Below are positions 1-14,671 of a stretch of 16,784 bases of DNA, piece by piece. Position numbers and translations under genes: made by a program. How positions within the stretch are numbered: position 1 is the stretch's first letter; every line of letters begins with the position of its first letter. Source of the DNA: a virus; the UHGV virus genome UHGV-0338128; one strand, 5' to 3'. Below the pieces are notes generated by a model. That model was not told the DNA's origin. It worked only from the letters and a program-made list of their open reading frames with translations, and searched no databases.

Positions 1-138
1 GGACTGTCAACGATCTACCGCTATCACCCTGTTGGGACTGTCATAACGCAACCTGAAATGTAATTCTTTTTCAAATAATGAAACGCCGCGTGGATGCCAT
101 TTATCGCACAAGATAGAGTGCATTTATCGCGCGGCGCA

Positions 139-528
139 TCAGGTGAGAATGTTGCGATCCAGTGCTTCCGGCACGGCATAGCCGCCGTCTTCATCGGTGC
201 CCACCTGCAATGCCTTGCGCTCCAGATCGCGCAGACCATCTTCACGGCCTTTACGCAGGAAGCCCACAAACGCTTCTTTATGCTCGGTGGCCAGTTTATT
301 TTGCGCACCACCTGCCGGACGTTTCAGCTCAAGCAGCTCTTTTTCAAGATCGCTTTTGAGGTTTTCCAGCTCGCTGAGTTTCCCGTTCAGGGTTTCCACC
401 TGCCCGGCAAGTTTGCCTTTTTCCTGCTCAATCGCATCCACGCGCTTGTCGTTCTTTGCTTTGAAGTCGTCAAACTTCTGCTGCAGCTCCTGCGCGACCT
501 GTTCGACATCTTTAATATCAACCGCCAT
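139..528 (-). pseudogene. HK97-family major capsid protein, N-terminal fragment (delta/scaffold-like coiled coil plus first residues of the mature domain); ORF stops after 129 aa
   Basis: ATG at 528 with AGGAG SD 7 nt upstream; stop of the upstream protease gene lies just before it. The translation is charged and coiled-coil-like (EQ/KL-rich) and ends ...TDEDGGYAVPEALDRNILT, which looks like the start of a mature capsid domain. Full-length HK97-type capsid proteins are about 350-400 aa; here an in-frame TGA occurs at 139-141 and bases 1-138 do not continue the capsid frame. Confidence 0.5.
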
Positions 529-8918: not shown

Positions 8919-9914
8919 TTACACCAGTACGCCAATTGCCAGCGCACGATCGATAAAACGAAATATCAGCTCCAGCTGGGAGCCATACATCTCTTCAAAT
9001 GCCACGGTATCCGCATGCAGCTCGTCGTGATGCTTTCTGCACAAAGGCAACACAAAAAGGTCATGCGCTTTTGTACCCATTCCACCCTGTCCGTGGCCTA
9101 TCAGGTGGTGGGGATCATCAGCGGGCTTTCCACAACATGCACACGACTGTGTCTTAACCCAGCGCGTGTACTTTTCATTAACCCAGCGGCGACATTTTGG
9201 GCGTAACATAAAAGACTCCGGCGACTCCGGATCCACTTTCAGCGCCAGCACCTTTTTCGCTTTATCCTGGATGATGCTGGTGGCAGGAACCGAAGGAACA
9301 AGGTCACTTTCCCGGGTGACAGACGGCACAACAGGCTTTGGTAATCTCAGTGCCTTACGGGCTGCACTTTCCGGTAAGGCATCCGCCAGGTCATTACGAA
9401 TCAGCCACCAGCACAGTTCCGGCATTGTCACAACGTGACTGTCATCAAAACCGAGATCCCGACGCACAACAGACAACACCCAGCGGGCACAGTTATCCGT
9501 TGCCATTGATTCCAGCCGTTCCGTGAACTGATCGCGCAGCTGGTTATCGCAGTGCCAGCACAGACGGATTGCGCCCGGCGCGTGTCGCATTGTGGTCATG
9601 TTCTCGCTGTGCCAGTCGGAATGAGGCCACTGGCAGCCTTTTTCACGAAGTAACCAGCTTTCAAGACATTCCACGCCACCAGCACGACGGATCACTGCCT
9701 CATTGCGGAACACGGCCCGAACAGCAGGATCATCCGCCAGCGGTTGTGATGCCGCGGGAACGGCACCACTGGCGAAAGATGAATAACGTTCCGGCTCAGG
9801 CTCCAGCAGTACACGCCCCTGCATAAACAGGGGCATCAGTTCTGAACCTGGTCTGAACAATACGATCCCCATACGCGGGGCTATTTCAGGGGTCAGTAGT
9901 GCTCTCACGGTCAC
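8919..9914 (-). CDS. DUF968-like phage protein (YdfU-like) with C-terminal HNH/zinc-binding-like motif
   Basis: 331-aa ORF; C-terminal CACCGKPADDPHHLIGHGQGG...CRKHHDELH motif. Position just upstream of Q matches ydfU-quuQ in the E. coli Qin prophage as I recall it. Start codon at 9914 is GTG; the first in-frame ATG is at 9872. Confidence 0.6.
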   Translation of the reverse strand: MTVRALLTPEIAPRMGIVLFRPGSELMPLFMQGRVLLEPEPERYSSFASGAVPAASQPLADDPAVRAVFRNEAVIRRAGGVECLESWLLREKGCQWPHSDWHSENMTTMRHAPGAIRLCWHCDNQLRDQFTERLESMATDNCARWVLSVVRRDLGFDDSHVVTMPELCWWLIRNDLADALPESAARKALRLPKPVVPSVTRESDLVPSVPATSIIQDKAKKVLALKVDPESPESFMLRPKCRRWVNEKYTRWVKTQSCACCGKPADDPHHLIGHGQGGMGTKAHDLFVLPLCRKHHDELHADTVAFEEMYGSQLELIFRFIDRALAIGVLV

Positions 9915-9915
9915 C

Positions 9916-10725
9916 TCAATGAACGGTATCGAGCAACTTTAACAGCTCAGGGAATCGGGATTCGAAGAAATGCGGCTGCGTCTCGCGCGGATTTGCGGGA
10001 CTGATGATGTTCTTGCCGAACATGCAACCTTTCGCTGTCAGCGACCAGAATTTTTTGATGTTGTTAATCGTGGTACGGCTGTATCGTTCACGTTGTTCAA
10101 CGATCCCCAGCTTCGCCATCTGGTGATATGCCTGATTAGCTGTCAGGCGGATACCATACTGCTTCAGCAGTGCACTCAGTGACAGCGTGGGGCGGCTTGA
10201 GCCATCAGGCGCGTCAGCAGGAGCATCAATGGCATAGCGCGGTGCCAGATTCGGTAAGCCAACAGCCTCCTGGAGTTTCTGACAGGCACCAAGCACTGAA
10301 GAGTTAGACAGGTTTAATTCCCGGCGCATAAAGTCCAGCAGAATCACACCAGCCTGCATCTTGTCAGCAGCCTGTCCGGATAATTTTTCCGGTGCGCTGG
10401 TTACCATGTCGAAAGTACGGATCACCTTCAGATGGAATGACGGGCTGATCCACATTGCATAGGCATACACCAGTTCTTTGCAGACATACGTCCCCTGGTT
10501 ATTTCCGCCATTAATGACGCTAACTGGTTGATTTTGTTCCAGAGGCGGAATTCCACCCTCGGTGAAAAGTTGTTCAATCAATTCACAGGTTTGCTTATTG
10601 GAGAGCCAGTATTTCGGGCGGTTTTTTTGTTCTCCCCCGGCTGCCCTGTGCAGATCGTTCAGGCTGTAACGCCCATAAGCATCACGACGAACTTCAATAC
10701 CATCAATGACCATCAGATTATTCAT
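9916..10725 (-). CDS. KilA-N domain protein
   Basis: N-terminus MNNLMVIDGIEVRRDAYGRYSLNDLHRAAGGEQKNRPKYWLSNKQTCELIEQ matches the KilA-N DNA-binding domain pattern. GGAGA SD upstream of the ATG at 10725. Confidence 0.7.
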   Translation of the reverse strand: MNNLMVIDGIEVRRDAYGRYSLNDLHRAAGGEQKNRPKYWLSNKQTCELIEQLFTEGGIPPLEQNQPVSVINGGNNQGTYVCKELVYAYAMWISPSFHLKVIRTFDMVTSAPEKLSGQAADKMQAGVILLDFMRRELNLSNSSVLGACQKLQEAVGLPNLAPRYAIDAPADAPDGSSRPTLSLSALLKQYGIRLTANQAYHQMAKLGIVEQRERYSRTTINNIKKFWSLTAKGCMFGKNIISPANPRETQPHFFESRFPELLKLLDTVH

Positions 10726-10744: not shown

Positions 10745-11134
10745 TCAGGCGGCTGCACCCGCCGTTTTCTCGTACTTACTGATAGTGATCTCGACCTTCC
10801 CTTCCGGGATAACCGGTCCCCACTCCACCAGCATTCTTTTCACCTGGCTGTCGTCTTCCCACACACCTGCGTGGGTCAGGGCGTCAAACAGCGCCTTGTT
10901 ATAGTTATCCAGATCGCGGATCCTGTTATCCGGAGGAAACAACACGATCTCCACTGAAGCAGGTGCCGACGTTGGTTTCGGCAGACGACGTAACTGCTCA
11001 ACTATTGCTGCGCACGCCGCGCTCTGGAATTTTCGCCCCGCCGCGCTTATCAGGCTCTTACCTGCAAACGCCCCTTTGTTAGGGTGTCGCCAGTAAGTGT
11101 TCACGCTGGGCGGGAAAGGCAGGATAAGCTTCAT
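10745..11134 (-). CDS. rusA: RusA-family Holliday junction resolvase
   Basis: LPFPPSVNTYWRH... and IRDLDNYNKALFDALTHAGVWEDDSQV align with E. coli RusA (LPWPPSNNRYYRH..., [27 protein letters not shown]) as I recall it. ATGA overlap with the upstream gene. Confidence 0.85.
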   Translation of the reverse strand: MKLILPFPPSVNTYWRHPNKGAFAGKSLISAAGRKFQSAACAAIVEQLRRLPKPTSAPASVEIVLFPPDNRIRDLDNYNKALFDALTHAGVWEDDSQVKRMLVEWGPVIPEGKVEITISKYEKTAGAAA

Positions 11135-12754: not shown

Positions 12755-12975
12755 GCTGCACCTCCGAGATGCTTCATGTTTTTTCCGGAGCAAAAGGCTA
12801 TAAGCGGCATACTGACGCGGTAATTACGGCCCAGCGGTTCACAAACCACCTTCTGACATTCACGGTCAACCAGGCTAACACGTAGAACATGCCCTGCAGG
12901 CGTGGTGTACCACTGACCCGGACGAGGACAACGGAAAGTCTGATTGGTAAAACGTTTGAAAATATTCCGGATCAT
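12751..12975 (-). CDS. hypothetical small protein (74 aa)
   Basis: ATGA overlaps at both ends (with the Rha stop and the replication-gene start) imply translational coupling within the early operon. Several Cys/His (RCPRPG...RECQKVVCEP). No family recognised. Confidence 0.5.
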   Translation of the reverse strand: MIRNIFKRFTNQTFRCPRPGQWYTTPAGHVLRVSLVDRECQKVVCEPLGRNYRVSMPLIAFCSGKNMKHLGGAA

Positions 12976-14123
12976 TTGCGCCCCCTTACCTCTGAAGGGT
13001 TCAGCGACAAATTTATGAGGCAGGCCAGCGCCGAAGCATCATTAATATAATCATATAAGCTAACAGCCAGCGGAGATTCGGCTTTTGCCAACATAGGATA
13101 AAGCTGCTGCAGCCAGACCTGATGAATTGATGAAATGTAGGAACAGAGAACGCTGGCGTTATGTGCAACGTCGCTCGGTACAGCGGGCTTTGAAAGCTGT
13201 TTCTCCATCTGGTTAAAGGCATTGATATATGCCTCTTTGAACTGGGCAGCACGTTTACCCGTGAAACCCATAGCAAGAAACGCAAAACCGTCGCGTGTGA
13301 TTTGGTAGCAATGAAGTTTGCGACCTGTGCAATCAGTGTAATCACTCACCGAAAAATTGCGGGCAGTGAATGATGCTGAGCATTCAAGCGTGCGGATCTT
13401 TTTCAGTACATCGTCATGACGTTTGGAGAAGAAGTTGGCAACAGCCAGGGATGAAGTAACAACCTGACCATCAACGATGGCAATTTCAGGTTGAGTGAGG
13501 GTTGGGATCGTAGCCATGATGGCAGCCTCTTTGGTGATTTTTAATAACTCACCACCAAGGCTTTCCACGACCTTATTGGTGGTGAGACGTACAGGGGTGG
13601 AAATACCGGTCACCAAAGAACCCGGCCCAACCGAAGTTGGCCCTGCACGCCCCACCATAATTTGGGCGTAATGCTGCTCATGACACAAAAAAACCGCAAG
13701 AGCGCGGTTGTGCGCTTTGGTGAATTCCGGGTTTCCACGCCCGGCCCCCGTTTTATAAGGTGCCTGAACAGTGTAACGTCCCGGAATGGCAGAATCAATG
13801 TGTTGGTGGTCCGTCACACTCAACAAAATCACGCCTGAATTTCCACAAAGGACTAAAGCACTCATGCGGGTAGTCTTTGCGAAGATAGATAACGCGCTGT
13901 GTTTCTGGTTCCCAACGAATAACATGAACATAAAGCCCTCTTCCGTCACGAAACCAGCGGTTAAGTTCCTGCACAACTCGCCCCCCACAGTCAGGTAAAG
14001 TTCTCTGTGGTTACTTACAGCCTGGTGATTTGGTAATCTGCATTCATGCCGTAACAACAGGTGTTCAGAGACGCTGACCACCAGCTGTTGCGACAAACGG
14101 TTATTTGCCGTTAAACTGTTCAT
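12972..14123 (-). CDS. Rha-family phage regulatory protein with about 200-aa N-terminal extension of unknown function
   Basis: C-terminal 181 aa (from MATIPTLTQPEIAIVDGQVVTSSLAVANFFSKRHDDVLKKIRTL...ITRDGFAFLAMGFTGKRAAQFKEAYINAFNQME) match the Rha domain pattern. The frame is open for 202 further codons upstream to an ATG at 14123 that overlaps the CII-like stop (ATGA) and has GGAGA upstream. An internal ATG at 13517 with AAAGAGG SD sits exactly at the Rha domain start. Confidence 0.65.
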   Translation of the reverse strand: MNSLTANNRLSQQLVVSVSEHLLLRHECRLPNHQAVSNHRELYLTVGGELCRNLTAGFVTEEGFMFMLFVGNQKHSALSIFAKTTRMSALVLCGNSGVILLSVTDHQHIDSAIPGRYTVQAPYKTGAGRGNPEFTKAHNRALAVFLCHEQHYAQIMVGRAGPTSVGPGSLVTGISTPVRLTTNKVVESLGGELLKITKEAAIMATIPTLTQPEIAIVDGQVVTSSLAVANFFSKRHDDVLKKIRTLECSASFTARNFSVSDYTDCTGRKLHCYQITRDGFAFLAMGFTGKRAAQFKEAYINAFNQMEKQLSKPAVPSDVAHNASVLCSYISSIHQVWLQQLYPMLAKAESPLAVSLYDYINDASALACLINLSLNPSEVRGRK

Positions 14124-14671
14124 GCGTTAGTTTCTCCACAGACACAAAACGCCACGACGCCCGGAGCTGCACACTCGCGGGCGTCACTCTTTTCTGGAGC
14201 GCAGAAAATTTTGTAGACCAGTGCCGCATGCTCCTGGAGCTTCGAAATCGACAGATACAACTCATCATTAATTGCTGTCTGCTCGTGTGGCTCCACTACC
14301 CCATCTTCGATTGCCGAACGAATCTGCTTTGAGTAACTCCCGATTTGTTCGATGACTTCCAGCAGGCGCTGGTTTATATCGGCGTTCTCTACTTCCTCAA
14401 TTTCAGGAAGCGATACAAACACCCCACCAGCAGACTGTGCGACAGCATCCGCAATGTAGTGAGTGCCAGCAGCGCGCTGTAAAATCATTGCCCATCCCAG
14501 CGGGAAAATCTGATCGCCATCTGCACGAAGGCGGTTGAATAAAGCGTTCTCTGTTACATCCAGCCACTCAGCAGCTTCAGCGTAACCCCCCGGCAACGCC
14601 GCGATAGTTTTTCTGACAGCTTTCACGTACCACTCAGGCTGTTTTTCCACTTTCCAGTGATGCTTACCCAC
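14120..14671 (-). CDS. putative CII-type early regulatory protein (phage 186 CII / CP76-like), 183 aa
   Basis: Occupies the cII position directly after cro. GTG start at 14671 with AGGAG 7 nt upstream. The central segment (ALFNRLRADGDQIFPLGWAMILQRAAGTHYIADAVAQ) loosely resembles phage 186 CII as I recall it. Tentative. Confidence 0.4.
   Translation of the reverse strand: MGKHHWKVEKQPEWYVKAVRKTIAALPGGYAEAAEWLDVTENALFNRLRADGDQIFPLGWAMILQRAAGTHYIADAVAQSAGGVFVSLPEIEEVENADINQRLLEVIEQIGSYSKQIRSAIEDGVVEPHEQTAINDELYLSISKLQEHAALVYKIFCAPEKSDARECAAPGVVAFCVCGETNA

Follow-up and report, generated by a model that had tools for sequence, protein, structure and literature searches.

Why an open reading frame (ORF) should continue for 202 codons upstream of a well-formed start site is the question raised by the minus strand of UHGV-0338128, a virus genome of 16,784 nucleotides (nt) that was analysed at its full length and is called the window below. 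There, a frame of 383 codons (12972-14123) ends in a Rha-type regulatory domain with its own in-frame ATG at 13517. Our analysis indicated that the locus is probably a nested gene of the P4 eta/kil type, arranged around an RNA switch of the P1 immI/IsrK type and carrying a Rha antirepressor as its payload, a reading to which we give a probability of about 0.6. Arrangements of this kind are already known, and the window adds one whose payload is Rha and whose setting is a lambdoid early operon. What is most clearly new is that the 'Ash domain' of such proteins is the in-frame translation of an IsrK-like RNA and a C4-like RNA, kept open without selection on the peptide. The features of the frame itself are as follows.

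12972-14123, minus strand: through-ORF of 383 codons (383 amino acids (aa), ATG start) that links the CII stop with the Rha stop; 26 distinct close relatives and most C4 modules keep it open
14120-14123, minus strand: ATGA overlap of the CII/YmfL-like stop and the first ATG of the long ORF, read from the sequence; a translational coupling signal
12972-13517, minus strand: Rha-only ORF of 181 aa from ATG 13517; matches to Pfam PF09669, phrog_821 and phrog_518

The layout was exactly as a preliminary description of the window had given it, with a first ATG that overlaps the stop of the CII-like gene and an internal ATG behind a good Shine-Dalgarno (SD) sequence. The long ORF starts at 14123-14121 and stops at 12974-12972 (minus strand); its start codon has GGAG 10 nt 5′ of it and shares two letters with the TGA (14122-14120) that ends the upstream ORF. 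The internal ATG at 13517 is codon 203 and follows the SD sequence AGAGG (13530-13526) at a spacing of 8 nt. Pfam Phage_pRha (PF09669) matched residues 223-308 (nt 13457-13200) with 103.8 bits against a cut-off of 29.9; the activity of Rha as an antirepressor against the resident CI repressor is putative and follows from the family names only.

In the 606 nt 5′ of 13517, the long frame contains 0 stops, the other two frames of the same strand 13 and 9, and the frames of the opposite strand 7-10 each. A fully open frame over these 606 nt arose in only 17 of 20,000 dinucleotide-preserving shuffles, and relatives down to ~80% identity also keep the long frame open. The openness therefore exceeds chance expectation, and a chance frame was ruled out by the shuffles and the relatives, as the preliminary description had supposed.

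The RNA genes inside the long frame

The N-terminal part had been described as matching nothing recognisable. This did not hold, as residues 117-213 matched Pfam Phage_ASH (PF10554; 57.6 bits against a cut-off of 26) and the DNA beneath them matched the Rfam models isrK and C4. The matched residues correspond to nt 13775-13485, which cover the IsrK-like RNA, the C4-like RNA, the leader and the first Rha codons, so that the Phage_ASH 'domain' of this window is a translation of RNA genes. The elements in this part of the frame are listed in the order of transcription.

13770-13798, minus strand: promoter-like site, TTGATT (13798-13793), 17 nt and TACACT (13775-13770); ends 7 nt before the 5′ end of the IsrK-like RNA
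13687-13763, minus strand: IsrK-like small RNA, equivalent to P4 seqA; Rfam RF01394, 64 bits against a gathering score of 50
13575-13662, minus strand: C4-like antisense RNA, equivalent to P1 c4 and P4 CI; Rfam RF01695, 83.6 bits against a gathering score of 45
13526-13568, minus strand: leader with the C4 targets a2 GUGGAAA (13568-13562) and b2 UCACCAAAGAG (13537-13527), found by duplex energies and three-way covariation

The IsrK-like RNA ends in an intrinsic terminator (stem 13709-13692 and a U run) and carries two targets, a1 GUGGAAA (13738-13732) and b1 UCACCAAAG (13723-13715). The recognition loop b′ of C4, GUUCUUUGGUGA (13621-13610), is the 12-nt loop of hairpin 2 and is complementary over 9-12 nt to b1 in IsrK and to b2 in the leader, and its element a′ UUUCCAC (13603-13597) is complementary over 7 nt to a1 and a2. 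The duplexes predicted for the window reach -15.0 kcal/mol for b′ and -9.1 kcal/mol for a′, and b2 overlaps the SD sequence of the 13517 start. The C4 fold was 99.8% paired among 64 distinct sequences, with 12 pairs changed on both sides. The Rfam model c4-a1b1 scored only 17.7 bits at the window against a gathering score of 46.7; the isrK model matched instead.

The modules were compared in 120 viral contigs carrying the C4 sequence pattern, nearly all of them true C4, and in 15 annotated phages, all 15 of which carry isrK and C4 at a spacing that is nearly always the same. The comparison revealed 53 a′/b′ combinations, or specificity types, and in almost all of them the two upstream and the two downstream targets had changed to match. 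The hexamers of the promoter-like site, or TTGAAA/TTGACT and TATAGT, recur at the same place in about half of 78 distinct upstream segments, and the site is a candidate internal promoter. At the level of sequence, these results demonstrated the anatomy of the module and its pairings.

Further observations were made on the modules. The recognition elements lie at about C4 -76, -61, +42..53, +59..66, +92 and +122 (loci L001-L141), and the a and b elements reassort independently, one a′ occurring with many b′ loops and vice versa (53 combinations in 100 distinct modules). Near-identical phages that differ solely at the recognition elements suggest that immunity specificity is under diversifying selection. 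In some phages, two or three complete IsrK-C4-antirepressor modules follow one another in tandem, ~656 nt apart, each copy with another a′/b′ specificity and each long ORF beginning at the stop of the previous one; examples are L051 (C4 at 9710-9796, 10366-10452 and 11022-11108), L024, L037, L038, L095, L109, L115 and L007 (phiP27 L14-L16). In the Yersinia phage vB_YpM_41 (L020), a ryfA RNA (Rfam RF00126, 134.6 bits; 137-435, minus strand) lies ~1 kb upstream of the IsrK/C4 module.

Selection on the frame and on the peptide

Peptide selection was assayed by counting the variable sites at codon positions 1/2/3 among 26 distinct close relatives, with the flanking genes as controls.

CII (control): 77/58/145, third-position excess
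Segment A (14123-13975, the overlapping ATGA included): 11/15/16, flat
DUF4222 region, in the long frame: 5/19/5, equal to 5/5/19 in the DUF4222 frame
Promoter and IsrK: 15/17/12, flat
Spacer (13686-13663), C4 and leader: 35/38/40, flat
Rha (control): 56/50/128, third-position excess

Among these relatives, the long frame had no third-position bias in any segment 5′ of 13517. Given the flat counts and the excess in both controls, nothing 5′ of 13517 is under peptide-level selection in the long frame. Two further features lie under the frame ahead of the promoter-like site.

13975-14119, minus strand: segment A, the 145 nt that separate the CII stop from the start of DUF4222; the long frame has no stop here, and no frame shows codon periodicity
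13795-13974, minus strand: DUF4222 gene of 59 aa with a GTG start, in the +2 frame relative to the long frame (Pfam PF13973); here its frame is under protein selection

The DUF4222 ORF matched PF13973 with 51.2 bits (cut-off 27, E 9.1e-14) and phrog_1343 with an E value of 2e-36, overlaps residues 51-110 of the long frame, and has its stop codon within the -35 hexamer TTGATT. Its variable sites by its own codon positions numbered 21/11/51 in a second set of sequences, and its amino acids are conserved in SfIV, Klebsiella, L006 and ST64B, where the translation of the long frame is not conserved. By conservation and by codon-position counts, the long frame thus loses to the DUF4222 frame as the coding frame of 13974-13795. 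Segment A (14119-13975) matched nothing.

A protein domain under amino-acid selection in the upstream segment was therefore not supported, its substitutions lacking third-position bias and residues 51-110 following the DUF4222 frame. The structure search of the N-terminal region found no match to any solved structure (PDB). A single-sequence AlphaFold model had a mean predicted local distance difference test score (pLDDT) of 35, the N-terminal two-thirds scoring lowest (24-32 over residues 1-250); with confidence low throughout, the model is uninformative beyond that ranking. A folded N-terminal domain of a new kind was rejected on the Pfam, Rfam and codon-position data and the lack of a PDB match.

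The same counts suit an explanation in which the long ORF is an annotation artefact, only DUF4222 and the 181-aa Rha being translated and the long frame being a functionless, passive by-product of conserved RNA and gene sequence. The strong SD sequence at 13517 and the evident C4 target over it agree with this, as does the inconsistency of the Prokaryotic Genome Annotation Pipeline (PGAP), which on identical DNA (L143 and L144, both RefSeq E. coli) gives either one 383-aa Rha or DUF4222 plus a 297-aa Rha from codon 87. In-frame stops do occur in 8 of 102 distinct modules, and the conserved RNA parts could inherit their lack of stops by descent.

The artefact explanation was set against the distribution of stops in frame 0, defined as the frame of an ATG at C4 position 5 that was present in 121 of 121 distinct loci.

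13656-13658, minus strand: in-frame ATG at codon 156, in the 5′ arm of C4 (window 13658); counterpart of the first AUG of Gifsy-1 orf45, with no stop before Rha

Frame 0 is open from 5′ of IsrK into the downstream gene in ~115 of the 121 loci, although the downstream genes differ and are unrelated, and it ends at +331 to +1252, whereas frames 1 and 2 close within ~50-110 nt. The mean number of stops per module was 0.28 in frame 0, 2.98 in frame 1 and 4.56 in frame 2, and 94 of the 102 modules have no in-frame stop. Stop trinucleotides occupy 13 distinct positions in phase 0, all within 8 loci, and 32 and 33 in the other phases; counted as distinct occurrences, they number 14, 99 and 107. Avoidance extends to hypervariable parts, as 67% of the sites in the spacer, C4 and leader are variable, yet 0 of the 26 close relatives have a stop there. 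Four indels were found in the 606 nt, with lengths of 6, 3, 3 and 3 nt, all multiples of three. In addition, the equivalent ORF of P4 is reported as translated and functional in the summary given by PMC10111431. A passive by-product is thus unlikely, and the counts indicate that the upstream frame is kept open and not kept as a peptide sequence, selection acting on its openness.

Less probable again is that translation starts at the C4 ATG 13658, as in Gifsy-1 orf45, and that the frame further upstream is irrelevant; with no stop after 13658, this would give a 228-aa Rha with a 47-residue extension. The invariance of that ATG speaks for such a leader fusion, as do its frame, which is that of the downstream gene in most loci, and the first AUG of Gifsy-1 orf45, which lies at the same position, is translated and is required for AnrP (PMC4825925). 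The codon nevertheless has no SD sequence before it and sits at the base of the long C4 stem, C4 targets the SD sequence of 13517, which marks 13517 as the regulated start, and the stop-free frame through IsrK and the promoter region up to the stop of the upstream gene would be left unexplained in most modules. That the Ash region is a folded, functional domain sharing its DNA with RNA genes is very improbable, for although Pfam lists Phage_ASH as a protein family, the window scores above its threshold, the literature on Shiga toxin (Stx) phages describes Rha/Ash as two-domain proteins (PMC8951638) and the frame is conserved, there is no third-position bias, the variable 'residues' are RNA loops and targets that co-vary at the nucleotide level, the conserved 'residues' are promoter hexamers and RNA stems, no solved structure matches, and the low pLDDT, weak evidence from a single-sequence model, points the same way.

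Several loci depart from the common arrangement. A heuristic count (SD plus ATG) gave 27 modules with an out-of-frame internal start, which on inspection were sub-classes with another small ORF in frame 2 and an open frame 0, and the count was discarded. In L027, L068, L108, L110 and L133 (C4 +141 onward), an SD-linked ATG opens an 81-aa icd/kil-like ORF in frame 2, and frame 0, overlapping this real small gene, stays open for 1,252 nt into an integrase-like gene. L019 (P2-like phage vB_EcoM-705R2, coding sequence 1444-2061), L087, L034 and L132 carry a 76-aa ORF ('MANRKQ...') in frame 2 after C4, and the frame 0 translation of this group is non-protein-like and stops exactly at the start of the next annotated gene (+448). 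Frame 0 is closed just 3′ of C4 in L046, L054, L059 and L072, where the start of the downstream gene is Bro-N-like ('...FSFES...'); this gene is off frame 0 in L054 and L072 and in frame 0 after an in-frame stop in L046 and L059, and the minority with frame 0 closed resembles the separate short leader ORF of Gifsy-1.

Known relatives and a proposed mechanism

The closest counterpart is found in P4, for which the summary of Forti 1999 in PMC10111431 describes Eta (199 aa) and, nested in it, Kil, its C-terminal 65 aa. According to that summary, a constitutive promoter lies inside eta, and its transcript is quickly terminated through CI and seqA interactions and processed to CI; Kil, a truncated Eta, is translated on occasional read-through; and translation of full-length Eta, which prevents termination, occurs only from a late promoter that lies upstream. 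The same source reports that the Rfam models C4 and isrK detect relatives of CI and seqA. In the P4 sequence, ORF199 (eta) starts at the stop of ORF88, matches Phage_ASH with 82.4 bits (E 3.8e-23) and has isrK and C4 hits inside it, and kil is its in-frame 3′ part, with a start context, 'EAAIMATTLTP', that aligns with 'EAAIMATIPTL' of the window.

The window shares with eta/kil a long ORF that begins at the stop of the upstream gene (ATGA, 14123-14120), an element like seqA/IsrK and an RNA like CI/C4 within that ORF on the same strand, a Phage_ASH match, and an in-frame internal start 3′ of the RNAs in a homologous context ('EAAIMAT'). The testable defining features of P4 eta/kil were thus found in the window, with a candidate only for the internal promoter, and its 3′ part belongs to the Rha family. 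The suggestion of the preliminary description that one frame yields two products is plausible, Eta and Kil being an experimental precedent in the PMC10111431 summary, but an unrecognised N-terminal protein domain is not. Unlike in P4, the 3′ part is a 181-aa Rha antirepressor and not a 65-aa Kil, the distance from IsrK start to C4 start is 101 nt as opposed to 185 nt, and the ORF is ~110 codons longer, running over DUF4222 and being coupled, within a lambdoid early operon, to a CII/YmfL-like gene.

The switch itself resembles immI of P1 and P7, where C4 has two recognition elements with the targets a1/b1 on its upstream side and a2/b2 across the ribosome binding site (RBS) of the next gene, the output is an antirepressor and the specificity differs between phages. 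In the P1 annotation, the order a1 b1, c4, a2 b2 and RBS is that of the window. Unlike P1 immI (c4, icd, ant1/ant2), the window has no icd-like ORF, and the RBS that would be blocked belongs to the Rha ORF itself; moreover, frame 0 is closed inside C4 in P1, and the antirepressor of the window is of the Rha type.

In Gifsy-1 of Salmonella, the small RNA IsrK is followed, after read-through of its terminator, by the stable processed STnc1160, a C4-like RNA (PMC4825925). The first AUG of orf45 lies in the C4 region, tagging demonstrated translation from it, AnrP synthesis requires this translation, and IsrK was shown to switch on the antirepressor at the isrK-orf45-anrP locus (PMC4825925). The window likewise has IsrK with a terminator, a C4-like RNA, a leader frame starting in it and an antirepressor-like gene downstream; as in orf45, the nucleotide sequence of the leader frame is conserved and the amino-acid sequence is not. 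It differs from Gifsy-1, where orf45 ends in an AUGA overlap with anrP, in that the frame from ATG 13658 runs stop-free into Rha and also extends far upstream. Finally, proteins of the Stx-converting 'Eru' phages are described as two-domain Rha/Ash proteins, Ash having 'no function assigned' (PMC8951638). As there, Phage_ASH and Phage_pRha lie next to the cI region of E. coli prophages, whereas the view of Ash as a protein domain in PMC8951638 differs from what was found in the window.

The action of C4 on the 13517 start and the role of continuous translation from 14123 are what we infer from P1, P4 and Gifsy-1 together with the stop avoidance. In the lysogen, transcripts from the internal promoter would yield IsrK, and C4 would arise by read-through and processing. 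C4 would pair with a2/b2 and block initiation at 13517, so the 181-aa Rha antirepressor would not be made. IsrK, which has the same targets, may titrate C4, or may open the C4 region within a long transcript, and turn Rha on, as in Gifsy-1 IsrK/orf45/AnrP. Once the early rightward promoter is derepressed, ribosomes ending the CII-like gene would restart at the overlapping ATG 14123 and read on into Rha, across DUF4222 (in another frame), the internal promoter, the terminator of IsrK, C4 and the leader. Continuous translation would keep the terminator hairpin, C4 pairing and Rho from acting, and early transcription would therefore extend to Rha and to the replication genes independently of the immunity RNAs. 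The full-length frame is probably translated on transcripts from upstream, a translation that would override the internal terminator as well as the antisense block; the 383-aa product would be a by-product of through-translation, and selection would accordingly fall on the openness of the frame and not on the encoded peptide.

A wider proposal, which we advance tentatively and at somewhat less than even odds, is that such 'relay' ORFs are a general device selected only for being translated, carrying ribosomes from one gene's stop to the next start across regulatory RNAs, terminators and genuine genes in other frames, so that transcripts from upstream promoters evade both termination and antisense control. 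In line with this, frame 0 crosses most C4/IsrK modules whatever the downstream gene, it overlaps real ORFs elsewhere (icd-like in L027 and L068; 76 aa in L019), and a stop-free, non-periodic, CII-coupled ORF lies over DUF4222 in 71 loci without a module.

Points against the reading and the setting of the locus

Several points weigh against the nested-gene reading. The P4 mechanism is taken second-hand from the PMC10111431 summary of Forti 1999, and translation of the long frame from 14123 and anti-termination in the window are predicted by analogy and, indirectly, from the stop avoidance and the indels in multiples of three. The frame has an intrinsic terminator and very stable RNA structure inside it, and the eight modules with in-frame stops indicate that a through-frame can be lost. 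P4 has a promoter inside eta; its candidate counterpart in the window, TTGATT-17-TACACT, agrees with 8 of 12 consensus positions, just under the scan threshold, and so was not called by the promoter scan. The compared sequences are related and not independent, which makes the P values rough, although the direction of the effects is unambiguous.

The first ~110 codons weigh in the same direction. In 71 distinct Klebsiella/SfIV-type loci without a C4/IsrK/Rha module, the frame over DUF4222 is likewise open, which refuted the idea that this openness is specific to module-bearing loci; the openness of codons 1-110 is therefore no evidence for an eta-like module mechanism. In the segment of these loci homologous to segment A, outside DUF4222, 0 in-frame stop positions were found against 15 and 11 in the other phases, and the CII-coupled ORF shows no codon periodicity. 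The relative L086 has a same-frame stop at C4-164 and, three codons on, an ATG at C4-155, a stop and restart that separate the first ~110 codons from the module; a stop between the two parts in relatives, which the preliminary description had named as grounds for refuting it, thus exists in part, after the first ~110 codons, and elsewhere the frame is mostly open. In loci without DUF4222, the module ORF usually starts at an ATG at ~-155 that overlaps the stop of the upstream gene. The ORF of the window is therefore a fusion of a CII-coupled ORF of ~110 codons over DUF4222 with an eta-like Ash-Rha ORF.

The ORF of the 71 module-free loci was itself recorded. Its ~112 codons run from the CII-like stop, over DUF4222 in the +1 frame, to ~20 nt before the DUF4222 stop, and it is filed as phrog_1170; examples are L225-L304 (DUF4222 at 1201-1377) and L016 (SfIV gp40, 1538-1876).

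The locus lies between the lysis-lysogeny genes and the replication genes. In Pfam, the upstream ORF (14120-14671, minus strand) matched Phage_CP76, 'regulatory protein CII' (E 7.9e-15); PGAP calls it YmfL. Downstream, the coupling continues.

12972-12975, minus strand: ATGA overlap of the Rha stop and the next ORF (12975-12751); the chain of coupled ORFs continues toward the replication gene at 12793-11948 (mEp460 annotation)

With an ATGA overlap at each end, the 383-codon ORF is part of a chain of coupled early genes, and the long frame therefore closes two gaps in it that would otherwise be untranslated. The window shares 99.9% identity with Escherichia phage PhiR63_1 and with many E. coli prophages, and near-full-length copies of the region were found in 558 of 5,426 complete E. 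coli genomes (~10%) and also in Shiga-toxin phages.

On the plus strand, opposite the 3′ end of the CII-like gene, 14089-14197 holds a hairpin, GACGCCCG...CGGGCGUC, followed by a U-rich tract (fold z-score -2.7). A promoter-like TTGCGA-17-TAAACT lies ~70 nt upstream of this hairpin, within the first codons of the long ORF. The position of the hairpin resembles that of the OOP antisense RNA of lambda, and such an OOP-like element may account for the conservation of the first ~13 codons ('MNSLT.N.R.SQ') among phages that otherwise differ.

Public annotation presents this locus as a two-domain 'Rha/Ash' protein of unknown function or as an inconsistent split, with the RNAs almost never marked: DUF4222 is annotated by PGAP in some genomes, and in the public records inspected the RNAs were never annotated by PGAP, isrK and C4 being marked only in F004 (L009, a Stx2 phage). 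The case is a warning that RNA genes can cast an in-frame shadow that is then curated as a protein family, and, if the relay proposal is true, Pfam Phage_ASH and phrog_1170 would be families of sequence that is translated and not selected as peptide. Read as an antirepressor switch under RNA control, with no fewer than 53 interchangeable specificities, the locus gives testable predictions, which concern prophage induction, the cross-immunity of co-resident prophages, and the control of replication gene, and hence toxin gene, expression.

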